Part shown: piece by piece, positions 608-9,149 of the stretch
Layout: each line of letters starts with the position of its first letter
Numbering within the stretch: position 1 is the first letter of the stretch
DNA from: Pseudomonadota bacterium
Lineage (GTDB): Bacteria > Pseudomonadota > Gammaproteobacteria > Steroidobacterales > JBCCFQ01
Direction: 5' to 3'
Length of the DNA: 11,102 nt
NCBI GenBank assembly: GCA_039029655.1
Contig: JBCCFQ010000052.1
Span: 1-11,102 of the forward strand
Notes under the pieces: model-generated
The model's input: the letters and a program-made list of their open reading frames with translations, nothing else
Told to the model about the DNA's origin: nothing
Databases searched by the model: none
Position numbers and translations under genes: made by a program

Positions 608-685
608 CTGGGAGTAGCTCAGCTTGGTCAGAGTACTCGGTTTGGATCCGAGGGGTCGCTAGTTCGAATCTAGCCTTCCAGACCA
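608..685 (+). tRNA. tRNA-Pro (anticodon TGG), CCA encoded
   Basis: Acceptor CTGGGAG/CTTCCAG pairs fully. D-arm is GCTC...GAGT. Anticodon stem CTCGG/CCGAG carries loop TTTGGAT. T-arm is GCTAG-TTCGAAT-CTAGC. Discriminator A is followed by CCA. Confidence 0.85.
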
Positions 686-1838: not shown

Positions 1839-3125
1839 ATGGCTGGTCTTAGGCGACTAGCAGAACTTGAGCGACAAATAACGGCGCGACGGACCAGCCA
1901 ATCTTTGGCATTGGGCCCATCTAGCCCAAGCCCTCACAAACGCCCGTCCCAGGACGGAATATCAAATCACGAAGGAGAACGCAGTATGTTCTATCAAAAA
2001 TTCATCGTGCGTAAGCACGAACGCGGTCTCCTGTTTAAGGACGGAGACTTCATCAAATTTCTTGAACCAGGTACGTATCGTTACATTGGTTTGGGTAATC
2101 GTTACAACGTCGAACGCTACGACCTTTCCGTTGCCGCGTTTGAACACCGCTTGAAGGATTTCTTGATTCAAGCGGAACGTGACGAAATCGATCGCTTGTT
2201 CACTCTGGTTGAAACACGCAGCGAGGAAGTTGCGTTGGTGTACCTGAATGAGCGTGTTGCCACGGTACTGGCCCCGGCAGAGCGCAAGCTTTACTGGAAG
2301 GGTGTAGTGAATGTGCGTGTTGAGCGCTTTGACCTCAATGAGGGCATTGCTTTGAACGCCCGTTTGACCAAACACCTTATCAATGGTCGAGACGCGAAGG
2401 TGTTGTCGACTGCTGAAAAGGCGATCTACGCCCGTATCGTTCCTGAAGGTCATGTGGGTTTGCTTTATGTGGACGGTGAGCTTGCCGAAACGCTACAAGC
2501 CGGCCTACACGCTTACTGGAACGTAGCCCACACGGTTAGCGTGGAACTGGTGGATCTTCGTGTCAAAGCGTTGGAAGTTCAAGGTCAAGAAATCTTGACC
2601 AAAGATAAGGTGGCGCTACGTATTAACGTTACTGCGACCTACCAATACTTGGACGCTGCAAAAGCACTACGTGCTGTGAAAGATCCACTGGATCAACTGT
2701 ATAAGGAAATTCAGTTCGGCCTTCGTGCAGCCGTTGGCACCCGTAAGCTGGACGCATTGCTTGAGGACAAAACAGCGATTGACCACGACATCGCTGAACA
2801 CCTGGGTAAGCGTTTCGCTGATATCGGCATCAGCGTTAAGAGCGTGGGTGTCAAAGACATCATCCTACCTGGTGATATGAAGGATCTTCTGGGTAAGGTG
2901 GTGGAAGCCGAAAAAGCGGCACAAGCGAATGTTATTCGTCGCCGCGAAGAAACCAATGCGACTCGTTCATTGCTAAACACCGCGAAAGTGATGGAAAGCA
3001 ACACAGTTGCATTGCGTCTAAAAGAGCTAGAGACCCTAGAAAAGGTTACCGAAAACGTAGGCAACCTATCTGTCGTGGGTGGTCTCGACGCTTTGCTGGA
3101 TGGACTGGTTAAGATTAAGCAGTAG
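1839..3125 (+). CDS. SPFH/band-7 domain protein (stomatin/slipin/HflKC-like membrane-associated protein)
   Basis: The ORF is long and has no competing frames. ATG at 1839 is preceded by AAAGGAGGTGA with 9-nt spacing. An alternative start at ATG 1986 also has a good RBS (GAAGGAGA) and would drop a low-complexity Pro/Ser-rich N-terminal extension. After residue ~50 the product shows a typical slipin N-terminus (FIVRKHERGLLFKDGDFIKFLEPGTYRY). The C-terminal half is a coiled-coil Ala/Glu/Lys-rich region typical of band-7 proteins. Stop is TAG at 3125. Confidence 0.88.
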   Translation: MAGLRRLAELERQITARRTSQSLALGPSSPSPHKRPSQDGISNHEGERSMFYQKFIVRKHERGLLFKDGDFIKFLEPGTYRYIGLGNRYNVERYDLSVAAFEHRLKDFLIQAERDEIDRLFTLVETRSEEVALVYLNERVATVLAPAERKLYWKGVVNVRVERFDLNEGIALNARLTKHLINGRDAKVLSTAEKAIYARIVPEGHVGLLYVDGELAETLQAGLHAYWNVAHTVSVELVDLRVKALEVQGQEILTKDKVALRINVTATYQYLDAAKALRAVKDPLDQLYKEIQFGLRAAVGTRKLDALLEDKTAIDHDIAEHLGKRFADIGISVKSVGVKDIILPGDMKDLLGKVVEAEKAAQANVIRRREETNATRSLLNTAKVMESNTVALRLKELETLEKVTENVGNLSVVGGLDALLDGLVKIKQ

Positions 3126-3136
3126 TTCAGCCCATG

Positions 3137-3174
3137 GAGGGTGTGCAACGCACCCTCCAACTTTCAAATTTTTC
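3137..3174 (+). terminator. probable rho-independent terminator after the SPFH gene
   Basis: A GC-rich hairpin GGAGGGTG-(TGCAACG)-CACCCTCC with an 8-9 bp stem is followed by a T-rich tract (CTTTCAAATTTTT). The T-run lies a little far from the stem, so confidence is moderate. Confidence 0.5.
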
Positions 3175-3175
3175 G

Positions 3176-3252
3176 ACGGCTGTAGCTCAGTGGATAGGAG
3201 CGCGACATTGCGAAAGTCGAGGTCACAAGTTCAACTCTTGTCAGCCGTACCA
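3176..3252 (+). tRNA. tRNA-Arg-like (anticodon probably GCG); A-A mismatch closes anticodon stem
   Basis: Acceptor ACGGCTG/CAGCCGT is perfect. D-stem is GCTC/GAGC. T-arm is ACAAG-TTCAACT-CTTGT. Discriminator A is followed by CCA. The anticodon stem CGAC(A)/(A)GTCG has an A-A mismatch next to the loop. This gives an effective 9-nt loop ATTGCGAAA, so the anticodon assignment (GCG) is tentative. Confidence 0.6.
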
Positions 3253-3259
3253 ATTCAAT

Positions 3260-3333
3260 TCGGTGCTGGTCTAAAGGCAGGACGCGAGACTTTGATTCTC
3301 GAGGTCGTGGTTCGAGTCCACGGCGCCGATCCA
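3260..3333 (+). tRNA. tRNA-Gln (anticodon TTG), CCA encoded
   Basis: Acceptor TCGGTGC/GCGCCGA pairs with one wobble. D-stem is GTCT/GGAC. Anticodon stem CGAGA/TCTCG carries loop CTTTGAT. T-arm is CGTGG-TTCGAGT-CCACG. Discriminator T is followed by CCA. Confidence 0.8.
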
Positions 3334-3351
3334 AATACGGGTCCAACTATT

Positions 3352-3484
3352 GGTGCCGTGGATCTCGATACTCAGCGATGTACTAAAGATCAATCCGCAC
3401 CTACCGTCCACAAAACAGATGCCATGCGGGCGGATTGGGTTGCAACCCTTGTTTAACTCAGTTCAATTCTGAGCGGCATCTCCA
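3352..3484 (+). tRNA. candidate interrupted tRNA (133 nt) carrying a ~58-nt insert; isotype undetermined
   Basis: The 3' part is a textbook tRNA end: T-arm CTCAG-TTCAATT-CTGAG, acceptor strand CGGCATC, discriminator T, CCA. The only upstream 7-mer that pairs 7/7 with this acceptor strand is GGTGCCG at 3352-3358, which includes one G-T. It is followed by a TG at positions 8 and 9. The conserved repeat element (3382-3439) lies between these ends. Removing it leaves 30+45=75 nt. I could not fold a canonical D-arm or anticodon arm by eye, so the call is tentative. Confidence 0.4.
3382..3439 (+). repeat. copy 1 of a repeated ~58-60-nt structured element (ACTAAAGATCAATCCGCACC ... GCGGGCGGATTGGG)
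   Basis: The 20-nt 5' block and 14-nt 3' block are identical to copy 2. An internal 8-bp inverted repeat CAATCCGC/GCGGATTG is separated by a ~30-nt partially conserved spacer (ACAAAA...ATG). Confidence 0.65.
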
Positions 3485-3486
3485 AC

Positions 3487-3562
3487 ACCCTCGTAGCTCA
3501 ATTGTCAGAGCACCGGGTTTTTACCCCGGTGGTTGTAAGTTCGAATCTTACCGGGGGTACCA
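3487..3562 (+). tRNA. tRNA-Lys (anticodon TTT), CCA encoded
   Basis: Acceptor ACCCTCG/CGGGGGT pairs with one wobble. D-arm is GCTC-AATTGTCA-GAGC. Anticodon stem CCGGG/CCCGG carries loop TTTTTAC. T-arm is GTAAG-TTCGAAT-CTTAC. Discriminator A is followed by CCA. Confidence 0.85.
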
Positions 3563-3601
3563 ATTCTCGTTGTCGCAAGGATTTAACGACTTATCTAATT
3601 C

Positions 3602-3655
3602 ACCCTTATAGCTCAATGGACGAGAGCGCCGAGTTTCTTGGCAAGGTTCTCGGCT
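3602..3655 (+). pseudogene. tRNA-like 5' fragment (acceptor strand + canonical D-arm + aberrant anticodon-like arm) with no matching 3' half
   Basis: ACCCTTA-TA-GCTC-AATGGACGA-GAGC is a canonical 5' acceptor strand and D-arm. It is followed by a 6-bp stem GCCGAG/CTCGGC enclosing a 15-16 nt loop instead of a 7-nt anticodon loop. No downstream T-arm or acceptor strand pairs with it. The repeat element copy 2 follows. Confidence 0.3.
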
Positions 3656-3677
3656 CATCAATCTTTTTTGAAGAAGC

Positions 3678-3737
3678 ACTAAAGATCAATCCGCACCCAG
3701 TGTTATGGAACAAAAATGACAAGGCGGGCGGATTGGG
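3678..3737 (+). repeat. copy 2 of the repeated ~58-60-nt structured element
   Basis: It shares ACTAAAGATCAATCCGCACC (3678-3697) and GCGGGCGGATTGGG (3724-3737) with copy 1. It has the same internal inverted repeat CAATCCGC/GCGGATTG. Confidence 0.65.
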
Positions 3738-3745
3738 GTACCAAC

Positions 3746-3822
3746 GCGGATCTGAAGGGAATGGCATACCTCGGTGGTTTAAACCCATTGGCTTCCCAGT
3801 TCGAATCTGGGGGTCCGCACCA
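3746..3822 (+). tRNA. non-canonical type-I tRNA with Leu anticodon TAA (short variable arm, 3-bp D-stem), CCA encoded
   Basis: Acceptor GCGGATC/GGTCCGC pairs with one wobble. T-arm CCCAG-TTCGAAT-CTGGG is perfect. Discriminator A is followed by CCA. Anticodon stem GGTGG/CCATT has two G-T pairs and carries loop TTTAAAC. The variable region is only 5 nt, although Leu tRNAs in bacteria and phages are normally type II. The gene shares the 5' motif CTGAAGGGAA..GCATACCT with the tRNA at 3947. Confidence 0.55.
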
Positions 3823-3824
3823 AA

Positions 3825-3904
3825 GCGCAGCTGACGGAAATTGGAAAAGCCTTTAGTACCTAAAACCTACTCGTTTCCGCGTTCGAATCGCGGGCTGCGC
3901 ACCA
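3825..3904 (+). tRNA. tRNA-like gene with perfect acceptor and T-arm but non-canonical D/anticodon arms (anticodon arm = 4-bp stem + 9-nt loop CCTAAAACC)
   Basis: Acceptor GCGCAGC/GCTGCGC is perfect. T-arm CCGCG-TTCGAAT-CGCGG is perfect. Discriminator A is followed by CCA. Only AGTA/TACT can close an anticodon-like loop, and that loop is 9 nt. I found no clean D-stem. Confidence 0.45.
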
Positions 3905-3946
3905 TTTTCAAATCGATACCCCACCAGGTTGCGGGTAACTCATCTT

Positions 3947-4024
3947 GGCCGTCTGAAGGGAACAGGCATACCTACCTGTCTTAGAAACGGGTGTTTCTCG
4001 GTTCGACTCCGAGGGCGGCTACCA
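3947..4024 (+). tRNA. non-canonical type-I tRNA with Leu anticodon TAG (short variable arm, 3-bp D-stem), CCA encoded
   Basis: Acceptor GGCCGTC/GGCGGCT pairs with two wobbles. T-arm CTCGG-TTCGACT-CCGAG is perfect. Discriminator A is followed by CCA. Anticodon stem CCTGT/ACGGG carries loop CTTAGAA. The variable region is 5 nt. The gene is a paralog of the tRNA at 3746. Confidence 0.55.
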
Positions 4025-4340
4025 AATTAGGGCACGTTGGCAAATGGACGCCGCCACTGAAAACGTTTAGTTGATAGTGGTCCGGATAAAACCGGTCTTG
4101 TTCTTAAGTAAATGCGAGAGCACGGTTGAAGATGGCAGGCGACTGCTCTGGGTAAAGGTTACTCGCTGGCGCCCGTTTCCAATCTCGCATTCTGCCGGTA
4201 GTAATGCATCGGTTACAGCGGTATGCGGGTTCGCCTGCGATGTGCAGGGATGCACAAGTGTCGCGTAGGACAGGATGTCCGAGAGCGACCCGTCTCCACC
4301 AAAATCTTACACAATCCACATGTTTTCCGGGGAAAGAAAA

Positions 4341-4907
4341 ATGACAATGAGAATTCTAAAATTAGATGTAGGCGGACGTCCTATCGCGTGGATTACACGG
4401 GAAGATGGGGCGCTGTTGTATTGCCGTGACCAGGTAGCATGGGAAGCGGGTGTTGAGGAAGCCATATTACGAGGCGGATACTCCCGTCGCACTGGACTGC
4501 GTTCAACGCTTCGGGTGAACTCAATTCTTGCCACAACGTCCGTGGACAAAGGCGCGGACGATTGGGCAGGTACCCCGGCACTGACCAACGCCCGTCTTTT
4601 TCGCAGAGATGATTACATGTGCCTGTACTGTGGCGAGGTATTGTCGCCGCGACTGCTTACACGTGATCACATCATTCCGGTCTCTGGCGGAGGCAAGGAT
4701 GAATGGGAAAACGTCGTGACGGCATGCCGACCCTGCAATCATCGCAAAGACAACGGTCGTCTTGAGGATATTGGAATGAGGCTACTGGCCGTTCCCTACG
4801 CACCCAATCGTGCGGAAGGACTAATTTTGGAAAATCGTCGTATCCTTAACGATCAAATGGAGTTTTTAAGGGCTCGAGTTGGCACAAAAAGTCGGCTGCG
4901 AGTTTAG
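4341..4907 (+). CDS. HNH-family endonuclease (N-terminal domain + C-terminal HNH nuclease motif)
   Basis: The ORF 4275..4907 has a likely start at ATG 4341, preceded by GGGGAAAG. In-frame ATGs at 4275 and 4320 are alternatives. The C-terminus carries a classic HNH signature: CLYCG...RDHIIPVSGGGKDEWENVVTACRPCNHRK. Stop is TAG at 4907. Confidence 0.85.
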   Translation: MTMRILKLDVGGRPIAWITREDGALLYCRDQVAWEAGVEEAILRGGYSRRTGLRSTLRVNSILATTSVDKGADDWAGTPALTNARLFRRDDYMCLYCGEVLSPRLLTRDHIIPVSGGGKDEWENVVTACRPCNHRKDNGRLEDIGMRLLAVPYAPNRAEGLILENRRILNDQMEFLRARVGTKSRLRV

Positions 4908-6552: not shown

Positions 6553-6909
6553 ATGACAGCCCACGTTGCGAGCCTTATCAATGCTGCCCTACTCATCACC
6601 ATGTCGGCATGGGGCTATTTTTCGTCGGGTAATCCCTCTTTTACGGCCTTGATTCCCGGTGTGGTGGGGGTATTGCTGCTGGCTTGCTACAAAGGTGTCA
6701 AGGAACAAAACAAAATAGTGGCGCACATCGCGGTCCTGCTGACACTGTTGATCCTTATTGCGTTGTTTATGCCTTTAAAAGGCGCCATTGGACGAGACGA
6801 CTCCGCGGCTATCCTGCGGGTATCGATCATGCTGGCCAGCACCGTGGTCGCGTTGGTTTTTTTCATTAAGAGTTTCATCGACGCTCGAAAAAACAGGCCC
6901 CAGACTTAA
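6553..6909 (+). CDS. small integral membrane protein (about 4 predicted TM helices), function unknown
   Basis: The 118-aa ORF has four hydrophobic stretches: LINAALLITMSAWGYF, LIPGVVGVLLLACY, IAVLLTLLILIALFMPL and ILRVSIMLASTVVALVFFI. The RBS is weak. An internal ATG at 6601 is an alternative start. Confidence 0.55.
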   Translation: MTAHVASLINAALLITMSAWGYFSSGNPSFTALIPGVVGVLLLACYKGVKEQNKIVAHIAVLLTLLILIALFMPLKGAIGRDDSAAILRVSIMLASTVVALVFFIKSFIDARKNRPQT

Positions 6910-6959: not shown

Positions 6960-9149
6960 ATGGACCGTGTAGAAATCGTTCACCAGAACTTTCGGACTCG
7001 CCTCGCCGCTGAAGACTTCCCGCCAGGTGTTTCGCCTAAATTCAAGCTACTCAGCACCACTGAGGCGGTTAGTCTGTTTCACGCACAGGTGCTGAGCCGT
7101 CAGCTTGATCGCATCAGTCGCATGATGCAAAAATCGGGACAAGGCTTCTACACCATTGGGTCGTCCGGGCACGAAGGTATGGCGGCAGTTGCCCACGCCC
7201 TGCGACCCACGGACATCGCGTTTCTTCACTATCGTGATGCGGCGTTCCAGATCGCTCGCGCCAATCAGGTGCCGGGGCAGACTATGGCCTGGGATATGCT
7301 ACTTTCCTTTGCCTGTTCATCTGAGGATCCAACAAGTGGCGGCCGTCACAAGGTGTTGGGGTCTCGTACTCTGATGATCCCACCCCAAACTTCTACCATT
7401 GCCAGCCATCTACCCAAATCAGTGGGTATGGCTTTTGCCATTGGCGCCTGTCGTCACCGGAAACCAGAGCACCAATTGGTTTTCGACGACGCGGTCGCTT
7501 TTTGCAGTTTTGGCGACGCTTCGTTAAATCACTCAACGGCTCAAGGTGCGATAAACACCGCTTGTTGGTCATCCATCCAATCAACACCACTGCCTTTGCT
7601 CTTTGTTTGCGAGGACAACGGCATAGGCATATCCACCAAGACGCCAAAGGGATGGGTTCAGGATTCTCTCCAAGACCGTCCGGGTCTAAGGTACTTCTTC
7701 GCAGACGGACTCAATTTTTACGATACCTATCAGGTAACCAAACAGGCGGCGGAATTTGTACGTCGACTCAGAAAACCCGCGGTCATACATCTTAGAACGG
7801 TGCGTCTTTACGGCCATGCGGGTGCAGATTTAGCCACGTCTTATTTGCCAAAATCTGAAGTGGAGGCCGATGAAGCCAACGACCCATTACTTCATTCGGC
7901 GCGTCTTCTCGTGGAGAACCAGGCGTTGACCAGTGCTGATGCGCTAAAGATCTATGATGAAACAGAAGCGCGTTTACAGCGAATACGGACCCATGTGTCA
8001 ATCAGACCTCACCTCAGCTGTGCAGCTGAGGTCATGCACAGTTTGATTCCACCAAAACGCAACTGCCAGACCATCAAAGCAAAAACCGCCGATGAAAGAT
8101 CCACCGCGTTCGGCAATGACTGGCGCAGCATTGATCAACCCCAACCTATGGCCCGACTGATCAACTTCGCGCTAACGGACCTCATGTTGCAGCACCAAGA
8201 AATCACCTTGATGGGTGAAGATGTGGGGCGAAAAGGCGGCGTGTATGGCGTCACCCAAAAATTGTCTCATCGATTCGGGTCGGGCCGCATCATCGATACT
8301 CTGTTAGATGAACAGTCTATTCTCGGACTGGCCATCGGAATGGGTCAGAACGGTTTTCTACCCATTCCTGAAATTCAGTTCCTAGCCTATTTACACAACG
8401 CGGAAGATCAGCTTCGTGGGGAAGCAGCAACGCTGCCGTTTTTTTCCAACGGACAGTTTGCCAACCCCATGGTGATTCGAATTGCCGGATTGGGCTATCA
8501 AAAAGGCTTTGGCGGTCACTTCCACAACGACAATTCTTTGGCGGTGCTGCGAGACATCCCGGGGCTGGTCATCGCCTGCCCATCAAACGGGATAGATGCG
8601 GCTAAGATGTTAAGGGAGTGTGTGCGACTGGCTAGAGAAGAACAGCGGGTGGTGGTTTTCCTAGAGCCAATCGCACTTTACTCAGCAAGAGACTTGCACG
8701 AGGAGAAGGACGGACAATGGATGGGCGTATACCCCGAGCCAAACGAAACTTTACGATTGGGTGAGGTGGGTGTTCATGGTGACGGTGAGCTGGCAATTAT
8801 CAGCTATGCCAATGGTTACTACTTGTCTCGTCAAGCTCAGACTAATCTCTTACAACAAGGCATCAACACAAAGCTGATTGATCTACGTTGGCTGGCACCG
8901 TTACCTGTGGAAAACCTGTTGGACTCTCTAAGAGGGTGTGATCAGGTACTCATTGTGGATGAATGCCGCCGGACCGGTAGTCAATCGGAAGCGATCATGT
9001 CTTTGTTATACGAACAGGGGCTTCGAAGCCTGGCTCGGGTCACTGCCGAGGACAGCTTTATCGCCACGGGGCCCGCCTATGCCGCGCCCTTGCCATCTGT
9101 AGAGAAAATTATAGACGCGGCTCACCGTCTTTGTGGGGATGGATTGTGA
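6960..9149 (+). CDS. thiamine-diphosphate-dependent 2-oxoacid dehydrogenase E1 component, fused alpha/beta subunits (transketolase-like)
   Basis: The ORF is 729 aa. The N-terminal half has the E1-alpha TPP-binding motif (FGDAS...N...FVCEDNGIGIST, compare GDG...NN..YAIS). The C-terminal half has the E1-beta start (MGEDVGRKGGVYGVTQKL...GSGRIIDTLLDEQS...PEIQF) and a transketolase C-terminal-like region. Confidence 0.88.
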   Translation: MDRVEIVHQNFRTRLAAEDFPPGVSPKFKLLSTTEAVSLFHAQVLSRQLDRISRMMQKSGQGFYTIGSSGHEGMAAVAHALRPTDIAFLHYRDAAFQIARANQVPGQTMAWDMLLSFACSSEDPTSGGRHKVLGSRTLMIPPQTSTIASHLPKSVGMAFAIGACRHRKPEHQLVFDDAVAFCSFGDASLNHSTAQGAINTACWSSIQSTPLPLLFVCEDNGIGISTKTPKGWVQDSLQDRPGLRYFFADGLNFYDTYQVTKQAAEFVRRLRKPAVIHLRTVRLYGHAGADLATSYLPKSEVEADEANDPLLHSARLLVENQALTSADALKIYDETEARLQRIRTHVSIRPHLSCAAEVMHSLIPPKRNCQTIKAKTADERSTAFGNDWRSIDQPQPMARLINFALTDLMLQHQEITLMGEDVGRKGGVYGVTQKLSHRFGSGRIIDTLLDEQSILGLAIGMGQNGFLPIPEIQFLAYLHNAEDQLRGEAATLPFFSNGQFANPMVIRIAGLGYQKGFGGHFHNDNSLAVLRDIPGLVIACPSNGIDAAKMLRECVRLAREEQRVVVFLEPIALYSARDLHEEKDGQWMGVYPEPNETLRLGEVGVHGDGELAIISYANGYYLSRQAQTNLLQQGINTKLIDLRWLAPLPVENLLDSLRGCDQVLIVDECRRTGSQSEAIMSLLYEQGLRSLARVTAEDSFIATGPAYAAPLPSVEKIIDAAHRLCGDGL

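Follow-up and report, generated by a model that had tools for sequence, protein, structure and literature searches.

The window analysed here is a stretch of 11,102 nt from a gammaproteobacterial contig (JBCCFQ010000052.1, assembly GCA_039029655.1). It belongs to a metagenome-assembled genome (MAG), is a fragment of a bacterial chromosome and not of a phage, and carries an array of tRNA genes (16 ARAGORN calls, 12 of them above the Rfam threshold) together with genes for a slipin, an HNH nuclease and the ligase RtcB. Between good tRNAs of this array lie two stretches, 3334-3486 and 3563-3745, in which no tRNA is called by ARAGORN, with its intron mode on or off, or by the Rfam tRNA model at an E-value of up to 10. 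Each of them contains one copy of an element of about 60 nt, hereafter E, set within the remnants of a tRNA gene. A first-pass annotation had offered three readings of this insert: an intron-like sequence that is excised and its flanks religated by RtcB, a miniature mobile element targeting tRNA genes, or a small stable RNA of the phage type. The two units and their intact neighbours are arranged as follows.

3260-3333, + strand: intact tRNA-Gln(TTG), left of unit 1 (ARAGORN; Rfam 56.3 bits).
3352-3381, + strand: 5' remnant of a tRNA-Cys-like gene, with the acceptor strand GGTGCCG (3352-3358) and then 23 nt without a proper D arm.
3380-3439, + strand: E copy 1 (covariance model R1, 61.6 bits, E-value 4e-17; repeat blocks), with the 5' tail (C)ACTAAAGA, the stem TCAATCCGC (3390-3398) / GCGGATTGG (3430-3438) and an unconserved loop (3399-3429).
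3440-3484, + strand: 3' part of the tRNA-Cys-like gene, joined to the 3' end of E and read directly from the sequence, with the anticodon loop TTGCAAC (GCA, Cys; 3440-3446), the 3' strand of the anticodon stem (3447-3451), the T arm (3457-3473), the acceptor strand CGGCATC (3474-3480), discriminator U73 and CCA (3482-3484).
3487-3562, + strand: intact tRNA-Lys(TTT), between the two E units (ARAGORN; Rfam 71.3 bits).
3602-3653, + strand: 5' part of a second broken tRNA, with the acceptor strand ACCCTTA, a D arm and the anticodon stem CCGAG/CTCGG with an expanded 15-nt loop.
3676-3737, + strand: E copy 2 (covariance model R1, 64.2 bits, E-value 6e-18; repeat blocks), with the stem at 3686-3694 and 3728-3736 and the loop at 3695-3727.
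3735-3743, + strand: orphan 3' end GGGGT-A-CCA (GGGGTACCA) of the second broken tRNA (repeat D12, the same as the tRNA-Lys 3' end).

The terminal blocks reported for the two copies are exact: 3382-3401 is identical to 3678-3697 over 20 nt, and 3426-3439 to 3724-3737 over 14 nt. The window has exactly two occurrences of the 16-mer CTAAAGATCAATCCGC, where 0.07 would be expected even if three mismatches were allowed. The internal inverted repeat is also real, with a length of 9 bp including a terminal U.G pair (TCAATCCGC/GCGGATTGG) and not the 8 bp originally given. The E-bearing units of the window match no Rfam intron or other family at an E-value of up to 10. A weak Rfam match to Y RNA (YrlA) at 3527-3632 was discarded as an artefact in which the T arm of tRNA-Lys is fused to the D arm of the next unit.

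Outside the window, E forms a large family, with at least 272 copies found in 240 Woeseiaceae or marine-sediment loci. The search pattern AAGATCAATCCGC-N20-50-GCGGATTGG was run on IMG/VR and on metagenome and genome collections. More than 120 stretches were matched in metagenomes and as many again in genomes, nearly all of them from Woeseiaceae/Woeseia MAGs and marine sediments, often with several copies per genome and on either strand. The strict pattern had zero matches in IMG/VR, the 25 matches of a loose pattern there all lack the family's flanking motifs and are ascribed to chance, and the covariance model found no E in the IMG/VR loci that encode RtcB. With the family model, pattern matches in other phyla reach no more than 20-29 bits, compared with 50-70 bits for true copies, and are therefore also considered chance; among the matches listed, the family is confined to Woeseiaceae-type genomes. 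By the covariance model, the window has 2 copies, and its relatives have about 10 in 6 kb of the corresponding island (L279, the closest relative), 6 (L280) and 10 (L281). A phage-type small stable RNA is contradicted by the lack of E copies in IMG/VR and by the chromosomal origin of the window.

Conservation is found at the ends of the element (gCACTAAAGATCAATCCGCacc ... gGGCGGATTGGG in 271 copies), while the loop carries about zero information, and its interior shows neither consensus nor covariation in the same 271 copies. The 5' tail has the 9-nt consensus CACTAAAGA (family consensus gCACTAAAGA, followed by the stem). Length is constrained: 53-55 nt separate the two search-pattern ends in 256 of 271 copies, which corresponds to a loop of about 32 nt. 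Each copy comprises the CACTAAAGA tail, a stem of 8-9 bp whose 3' strand closes it, and an unconserved loop of about 32 nt of constrained length. In the stem, 99% of cells are paired, changes on both sides occur in five of the nine pairs, and changes on one side only are almost absent. The test of the stem used alignments fitted to the model, which somewhat favours the stem, and the observed covariation values were reached by none of 500 shuffles. Stem variants coexist in one genome (CAATCTGC/GCAGATTG, CAATTCGC/GCGAATTG and CAGTTTGC/GCAAACTG, the last with three compensatory pairs), which argues that a folded single strand, of DNA or RNA, is recognized and not a duplex sequence. The loop was also considered as a guide or antisense sequence; there is no excess of complementarity to the 300-nt flanks, and an excess of direct matches arises from tandem copies.

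Most copies are intergenic (224 of 272 outside long open reading frames, ORFs), with a mild orientation bias relative to flanking genes. Clustering of the 2007 ORFs within 1.5 kb of E gave housekeeping neighbours only and no recurrent protein family, and the ORFs between outward-facing pairs of E are ordinary genes. E occurs as singlets, in tandem arrays and in inverted doublets; in the latter, the 5' ends face each other at a distance of 0-35 nt (at least 10 of 80 metagenome loci, and also within tRNA arrays). Singlets account for most detected copies, and the partner copies in doublets are more diverged. In some subfamilies, the same loop sequence is found at different sites, as copying would give. 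No excess of 2-4 nt direct repeats, the expected trace of target-site duplication, was seen at any of 25 boundary combinations. High copy number, short inverted repeats near both ends and the loop sequences common to different sites of some subfamilies are features that an ordinary miniature inverted-repeat transposable element (MITE) would share, one derived from a DDE-type insertion sequence and bounded by 9-bp terminal inverted repeats. We regard such an origin as very improbable, given the lack of target-site duplication at any boundary definition, a conserved 5' tail outside the inverted repeat, compensatory arm variants together in one genome and no linked transposase.

What kind of repeat is E, then? 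It is probably a short, non-autonomous, hairpin-forming repeat family of Woeseiaceae chromosomes, of the repetitive extragenic palindromic (REP) and REPIN kind, and as such a small mobile repeat and not a tRNA intron. REPINs are inverted REP doublets able to fold as hairpins in single-stranded DNA or RNA, and the REP-associated tyrosine transposases (RAYTs) are related to IS200/IS605 (PMC3116915). Like these sequences, E is short, extragenic, palindromic and lineage-specific, is present in hundreds of copies as singlets and inverted doublets, makes no target duplication, persists for long at orthologous sites and has been found just downstream of one RAYT gene. Unlike them, it lacks GTAG and has the 9-nt tail CACTAAAGA, its unit consists of a 9-bp stem closing a loop of fixed length, about 32 nt, that is not conserved, and it markedly prefers tRNA genes and GG stem/loop junctions, with partial tRNA duplications and pseudogenes as the result. 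Targeting of tRNA genes was not found in the REPIN paper, where the word tRNA occurs 0 times (PMC3116915), and a search for literature on Woeseia repeats or on REPs that target tRNA genes found nothing specific. What is new here is a REP/REPIN-like family with an unusual tRNA stem-loop preference; the REP/REPIN kind itself is already known. Short structured repeats that can sit in genes, including RNA genes, are also represented by the Rickettsia palindromic elements (RPEs) and the Neisseria Correia elements. Those have a defined full-length consensus, and Correia elements make TA duplications; E differs from both in being conserved at its ends only and in targeting hairpin junctions.

E is often fused to a classical REP (GTAGG, then AGCCCGCC..GCGGGCGAT), and the GTAGG motif belongs to this separate REP (GTAGGAGCCCGCC..GCGGGCGAT), not to E. 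On one contig of 1.7 kb (L102), the C-terminus of a RAYT (NCBIfam NF047646, E-value 9e-17) ends 25 nt before a 67.9-bit copy of E that is fused to a REP hairpin. Homologues of this RAYT fragment are present in unrelated genomes without E. Woeseiaceae have at least two other REP-like families, GTAGGAGCCCGCC(A/T)TGCGGGCGAT and GGAGCGAGCTCCTAC (L102 150-420; also, for example, L018, L023, L043 and L130), both of which are often found joined to E at its 3' end; the only RAYT fragment found has one of them beside it.

The association with tRNA genes is strong. About 26% of the copies (71 of 272) lie within 500 nt of a tRNA, the remaining 74% or so do not, and about 1% of a 5-Mb genome with some 50 tRNAs would fall within that distance. 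The relation is also directional, with a tRNA upstream on the same strand for 47 copies and downstream on the same strand for 3. In the usual layout, an intact tRNA is followed by its own terminator and a spacer, then by E and by a copy of the tRNA 3' part, which starts at the T loop (GG, followed by TTCGA...), at the acceptor 3' strand or at the D loop; the whole unit is sometimes tandem. Overall, 81 of 254 copies have a 3' flank that duplicates sequence found 40-320 nt upstream. NGG precedes the native copy of that sequence in 46 of 61 cases, and for 16 of the 61 a 5' stem/loop boundary coincides with the native junction, compared with 9.8% for random GG sites. The reactive or joined end of the element is its 3' end (...GCGGATTG), and the partners of this end are sites after GG, enriched at stem/loop boundaries. 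At the tRNA-Asn locus, E is present in all nine genomes compared, the junction point varies by genome and the sequence that follows E agrees with the tRNA of the genome in question; such genome-specific junctions indicate recurrent events. At six tRNA-Lys(CTT) loci, E lies flush with the mature 5' end. Two further regularities were considered and dropped: a degenerate tRNA 5' half upstream of E was significant in only 1 of 26 loci, and acceptor-like 7-mers upstream of E recur only at the tRNA-Asn locus.

The order of tRNA, an intervening stretch X, E and a duplicated tRNA 3' part resembles attL...attR, and junctions in the anticodon loop, the T loop and the acceptor 3' end lie in what are reportedly the classical integrase sublocations. 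E might on these grounds be the arm-proximal end of tiny integrase-mobilized elements in tRNA 3' ends, with the tRNA fragment after E as the displaced attR half; at one locus (L137), the displaced fragment is unlike the resident tRNA, as import would give. Set against this are the lack of any integrase gene recurrent near E, the locus-specific nature of X, the absence of the duplicated flank from most copies, and the joining of the same E to many tRNAs, REP hairpins and terminators that have only GG in common. Compensatory stem variants in one genome likewise argue for a hairpin and not for a duplex core site, and an origin of this type appears distinctly unlikely. With the tRNA-targeting integrative elements, E shares the duplicated tRNA 3' fragment beyond the insert and the same three sublocations; it differs from them in having no integrase, in inserts of 60-200 nt, in also using hairpins other than tRNAs and in sharing only 2-3 nt (GG) with its targets.

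Comparison with related genomes provides alleles with and without E. The tRNA-Pro(TGG) gene is intact in the window (608-685) and is disrupted by E in L279, L280 and L281. The disrupted gene is normal up to the anticodon (...CTCGGTTTGG) and is followed by an inverted E (clear in L280, degenerate in L279 and L281), a spacer and a direct E, after which it resumes 2 nt before the T loop; some 15-17 nt are lost, comprising the anticodon stem's 3' strand, the variable loop and, of the T stem, most of the 5' strand. In L195 and L281, the homologue of the tRNA-Glu of the window has been broken likewise, and in L279 an inverted doublet bridges two successive tRNAs, between the D loop of the first and the T loop of the second. 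L279 also has tRNA-Gln followed directly by tRNA-Leu(TAA), with no counterpart of window positions 3334-3745. An orthologue of unit 1 is present in L281, where CATGCCG is followed by an E variant and then by the T loop, CGGCATG, U and CCA; its junction is in the T loop and not in the anticodon loop as in the window. Among the first-pass readings, it is the miniature mobile element targeting tRNA genes that agrees with these alleles, with the hundreds of copies and with the strong enrichment near tRNAs.

Within the window, the two units are likely to be tRNA pseudogenes left by two E events. In unit 1, the D region of the tRNA-Cys-like gene would have been replaced by 23 nt and E; the junction lies after GG at a stem/loop boundary, in keeping with the rule of the family. 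In unit 2, the variable loop and T arm of a tRNA-Arg/Lys-like gene would have been replaced by 25 nt and E. Its 5' part (3602-3653) is homologous to tRNA-Arg(TCT) of related arrays (L281 9710-9786; L280) and paralogous to the neighbouring tRNA-Lys 3487-3562 (repeat D6, 88% match). The tRNA-like 5' fragment that had been noted upstream of copy 2 is real, and what follows this copy is a tRNA 3' end as well (GGGGTACCA, 3735-3743), joined directly to the 3' end of E, again after GG and with the T arm missing. With a 3' end like that of the neighbouring tRNA-Lys following copy 2, both copies lie inside tRNA remnants.

Three non-canonical tRNAs lie 3' of the E units (3746-3822, 3825-3904 and 3947-4024). 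Two of them have Leu anticodons (TAA, TAG) without a long variable arm and have an odd D region in common, CTGAAGGGAA..GGCATACCT; one is an 80-nt tRNA with the anticodon AAA. All three fall below the Rfam gathering score in the whole-window scan, and a permissive scan of 3100-4400 places only 3948-4020 above it (32.3 bits vs 29).

Copy 1 does have the appearance that led to the intron reading, in which E is an intron-like insert of functional tRNA genes that is excised, the halves being joined by the RtcB encoded 1.1 kb downstream. As had been annotated, GGTGCCG (3352-3358) pairs 7/7 with CGGCATC (3474-3480), one of the pairs being G.U; a good anticodon loop, T arm, U73 and CCA follow, E is co-oriented with the tRNAs, and RtcB and the HNH nuclease adjoin the array in all relatives. 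The calculated 75 nt remaining after removal of E is correct as arithmetic (30 + 45), but this product is not a tRNA according to ARAGORN or Rfam. A deletion scan around copy 1 gave no tRNA call with the natural ends of E; tRNA-Cys(GCA) was called only in artificial deletion constructs, those in which part of the E loop and its 3' arm are kept as a makeshift D arm. The same scan around copy 2 gave no call at all, and unit 2 entirely lacks a T arm. In the E-bearing tRNA-Pro alleles, the 15-17 nt that are missing leave nothing to splice back. Some 74% of copies are away from tRNAs, most are intergenic, many are inverted or in doublets, and RtcB is bound to the island whereas E is genome-wide. 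At 60 nt, E is also far below the size of a group I intron, it matches no Rfam family, and its only conserved structure is one 9-bp stem. Splicing is ruled out by the failure to restore a tRNA, the missing tRNA segments and the mostly non-tRNA distribution taken together, and the intron reading is hardly tenable. E resembles the archaeal and eukaryal tRNA introns (bulge-helix-bulge, EndA and RtcB) and the bacterial group I introns in being an insert in a tRNA gene, co-oriented with it and, here, near RtcB. It differs from both in that its removal restores no tRNA, that tRNA sequence has been lost, that most copies are outside tRNAs and that there is no group I core.

Covariation of the stem and the constrained loop length would also be expected of a functional RNA or DNA module under selection in the cell, such as a tRNA leader or processing hairpin, a stabilizer or a protein-binding site, with the tRNA rearrangements as side effects. 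The ends of E stay at consensus at orthologous sites despite diverging loops and flanks, and where its 3' end coincides with the mature 5' end of tRNA-Lys(CTT), as in the six loci above, RNase P would release E. The detection of discrete E RNAs ending ...GCGGAUUG would favour such a role. The orientation bias relative to flanking genes is only mild, the loop has no complementarity to nearby sequence, and inverted doublets, tandem arrays, partial duplications of the element's own ends and gene disruption are hallmarks of mobile or recombinogenic DNA; selection for a cellular function is an unlikely primary explanation of the family.

Returning to the REP/REPIN-like mobile repeat, movement may take place on single-stranded hairpin DNA through a RAYT-type HUH/Y1 transposase, a route we put forward tentatively and hold at less than even confidence. 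It is suggested by the lack of target duplication, the structural recognition of the hairpin, the inverted doublets, the one RAYT neighbour and the kinship of RAYTs with IS200/IS605. In the inverted doublets, the 3' ends point outward. The sites joined to E are often at the 5' stem/loop boundary of a hairpin, in T, anticodon and D loops and acceptor 3' strands of tRNAs as well as in REP hairpins and terminators, and the outcomes include insertion with loss of target sequence, local duplication and probably deletion. A more far-reaching and, taken as a whole, rather unlikely proposal is that E is an undescribed hairpin-guided element that specifically enters the T, anticodon and D loops of tRNAs after GG, where the loop meets the 5' strand of its stem, by RAYT-like mobilization of single-stranded DNA. 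An enzyme would set the loop length as a molecular ruler, tRNA loci and array islands would be continually remodelled by duplication, deletion and pseudogene formation, and some E-bearing tRNA-like transcripts would have been co-opted as functional RNAs. Such units have kept CCA and the pairing of their acceptor strands, and two of the loops include an acceptor-complementary strand.

Several observations weigh against the classification of E as a REP/REPIN-like mobile repeat. The link to RAYTs is one truncated gene on a 1.7-kb contig, and tblastn searches of 2.0 Mb of loci with that L102 fragment and with an approximate E. coli RAYT query returned L102 only. E lacks GT(A/G)G at the 5' foot of its hairpin, the motif of classical REPs, and has the tail CACTAAAGA in its place. 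Neither a transposition intermediate nor polymorphism within a population was seen. That orthologous sites in different genera, for example at tRNA-Asn and tRNA-Lys(CTT), have kept the ends of E could reflect a cellular or RNA-level role, and the model leaves the 32-nt loop of fixed length without explanation. In the loop of copy 1, GATGCCA (3418-3424) is complementary to the acceptor 3' strand CGGCATC that follows E; in L281, GGAGAAG in the loop of the copy at 6823-6883 is complementary to the following CTTCTCC-GCCA, at a place where the window has an intact tRNA-Ser(GCT). On a rough reckoning, chance is an unlikely source of two such matches in about 25 array copies, and the model does not account for them. 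These features of loop and ends allow for a function at the RNA level in some of the tRNA-like units that carry E.

What looked like a bacterial tRNA intron beside RtcB is in this way better described as one member of a family of palindromic repeats specific to a lineage. The preference of this family for tRNA stem-loops is unusual and can be quantified, and its copies visibly erode and reshuffle the tRNA-array island of an abundant, little-studied family of marine-sediment bacteria. Should enzyme geometry underlie the GG junction rule and the constancy of loop length, E would be a convenient natural system for the study of target choice by RAYTs. In annotation, tRNA-like remnants beside E should not be labelled introns or split tRNAs, and in metagenomes E can serve as a sharp DNA marker of Woeseiaceae.

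A phage origin of the window was first suggested by RtcB relatives of 60-72% identity on IMG/VR contigs and by PHROG matches of the HNH and other ORFs, and was ruled out by the presence of the same island in Woeseiaceae chromosomes of 4-6 Mb. INPHARED contains no phage similar to the window, and homologues of the slipin (Band 7) with 83-93% identity are encoded in Woeseiaceae chromosomes of up to 5.85 Mb. The order of the island is kept in L279, L280 and L281: tRNA array, small ORF, tRNA array, slipin, tRNA array, HNH and RtcB. Its flanks are ordinary chromosomal genes, which differ among these three. RtcB and HNH are part of the island in all relatives compared; they may be linked to tRNA biology, and nothing connects them with E.

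Across Woeseiaceae, the island comprises arrays of 8-19 tRNAs, an ORF of 74-103 aa, the slipin, HNH and RtcB, and its tRNA content depends strongly on the genome. In L280 it includes tRNAs for Val, His and Cys that are very short, at 68-71 nt, and have reduced D arms. The small conserved ORF within the tRNA array is at 204-515 in the window (L195 1304-1600; genes of 74-75 aa in L280 and L281) and matches PHROG 20427, of unknown function, at an E-value of 1e-12, with no Pfam match. At 1055-1209 lie two tRNA-like sequences without an ARAGORN or Rfam call. The first (about 1055-1130) is Gly(GCC)-like with the aberrant T loop CTCAGCC, and a normal tRNA-Gly(GCC) occupies the matching place in L195 and L281; the second (about 1136-1207) resembles a tRNA with the anticodon CAT and has an odd D region.

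Just upstream of HNH-RtcB, a conserved RNA-like region of about 220-270 nt was found at 4030-4301 (also L280 11968-12187 and L281 9959-10177). It is absent from L279, and the window copy has about 52 extra nt in the T-arm part. Its ends are tRNA-like (GGGCACG...CGTGTCC-A-CCA), with a D-arm-like 5' part and a T arm GCGGG-TTCGATA-CCCG, and several internal helices show compensatory changes. A full-length match to the Rfam transfer-messenger RNA (tmRNA) model is weak and is found on L280 only (11.2 bits, E-value 0.021; gathering score 47); the conserved frame GCA GGC GAC TGC TCT GSG TAA could represent a short tag. Downstream of RtcB, 6960-9149 encodes a 729-aa fusion of the alpha and beta (transketolase-like) domains of an E1 dehydrogenase, which is absent from the corresponding position in L280 and L281.

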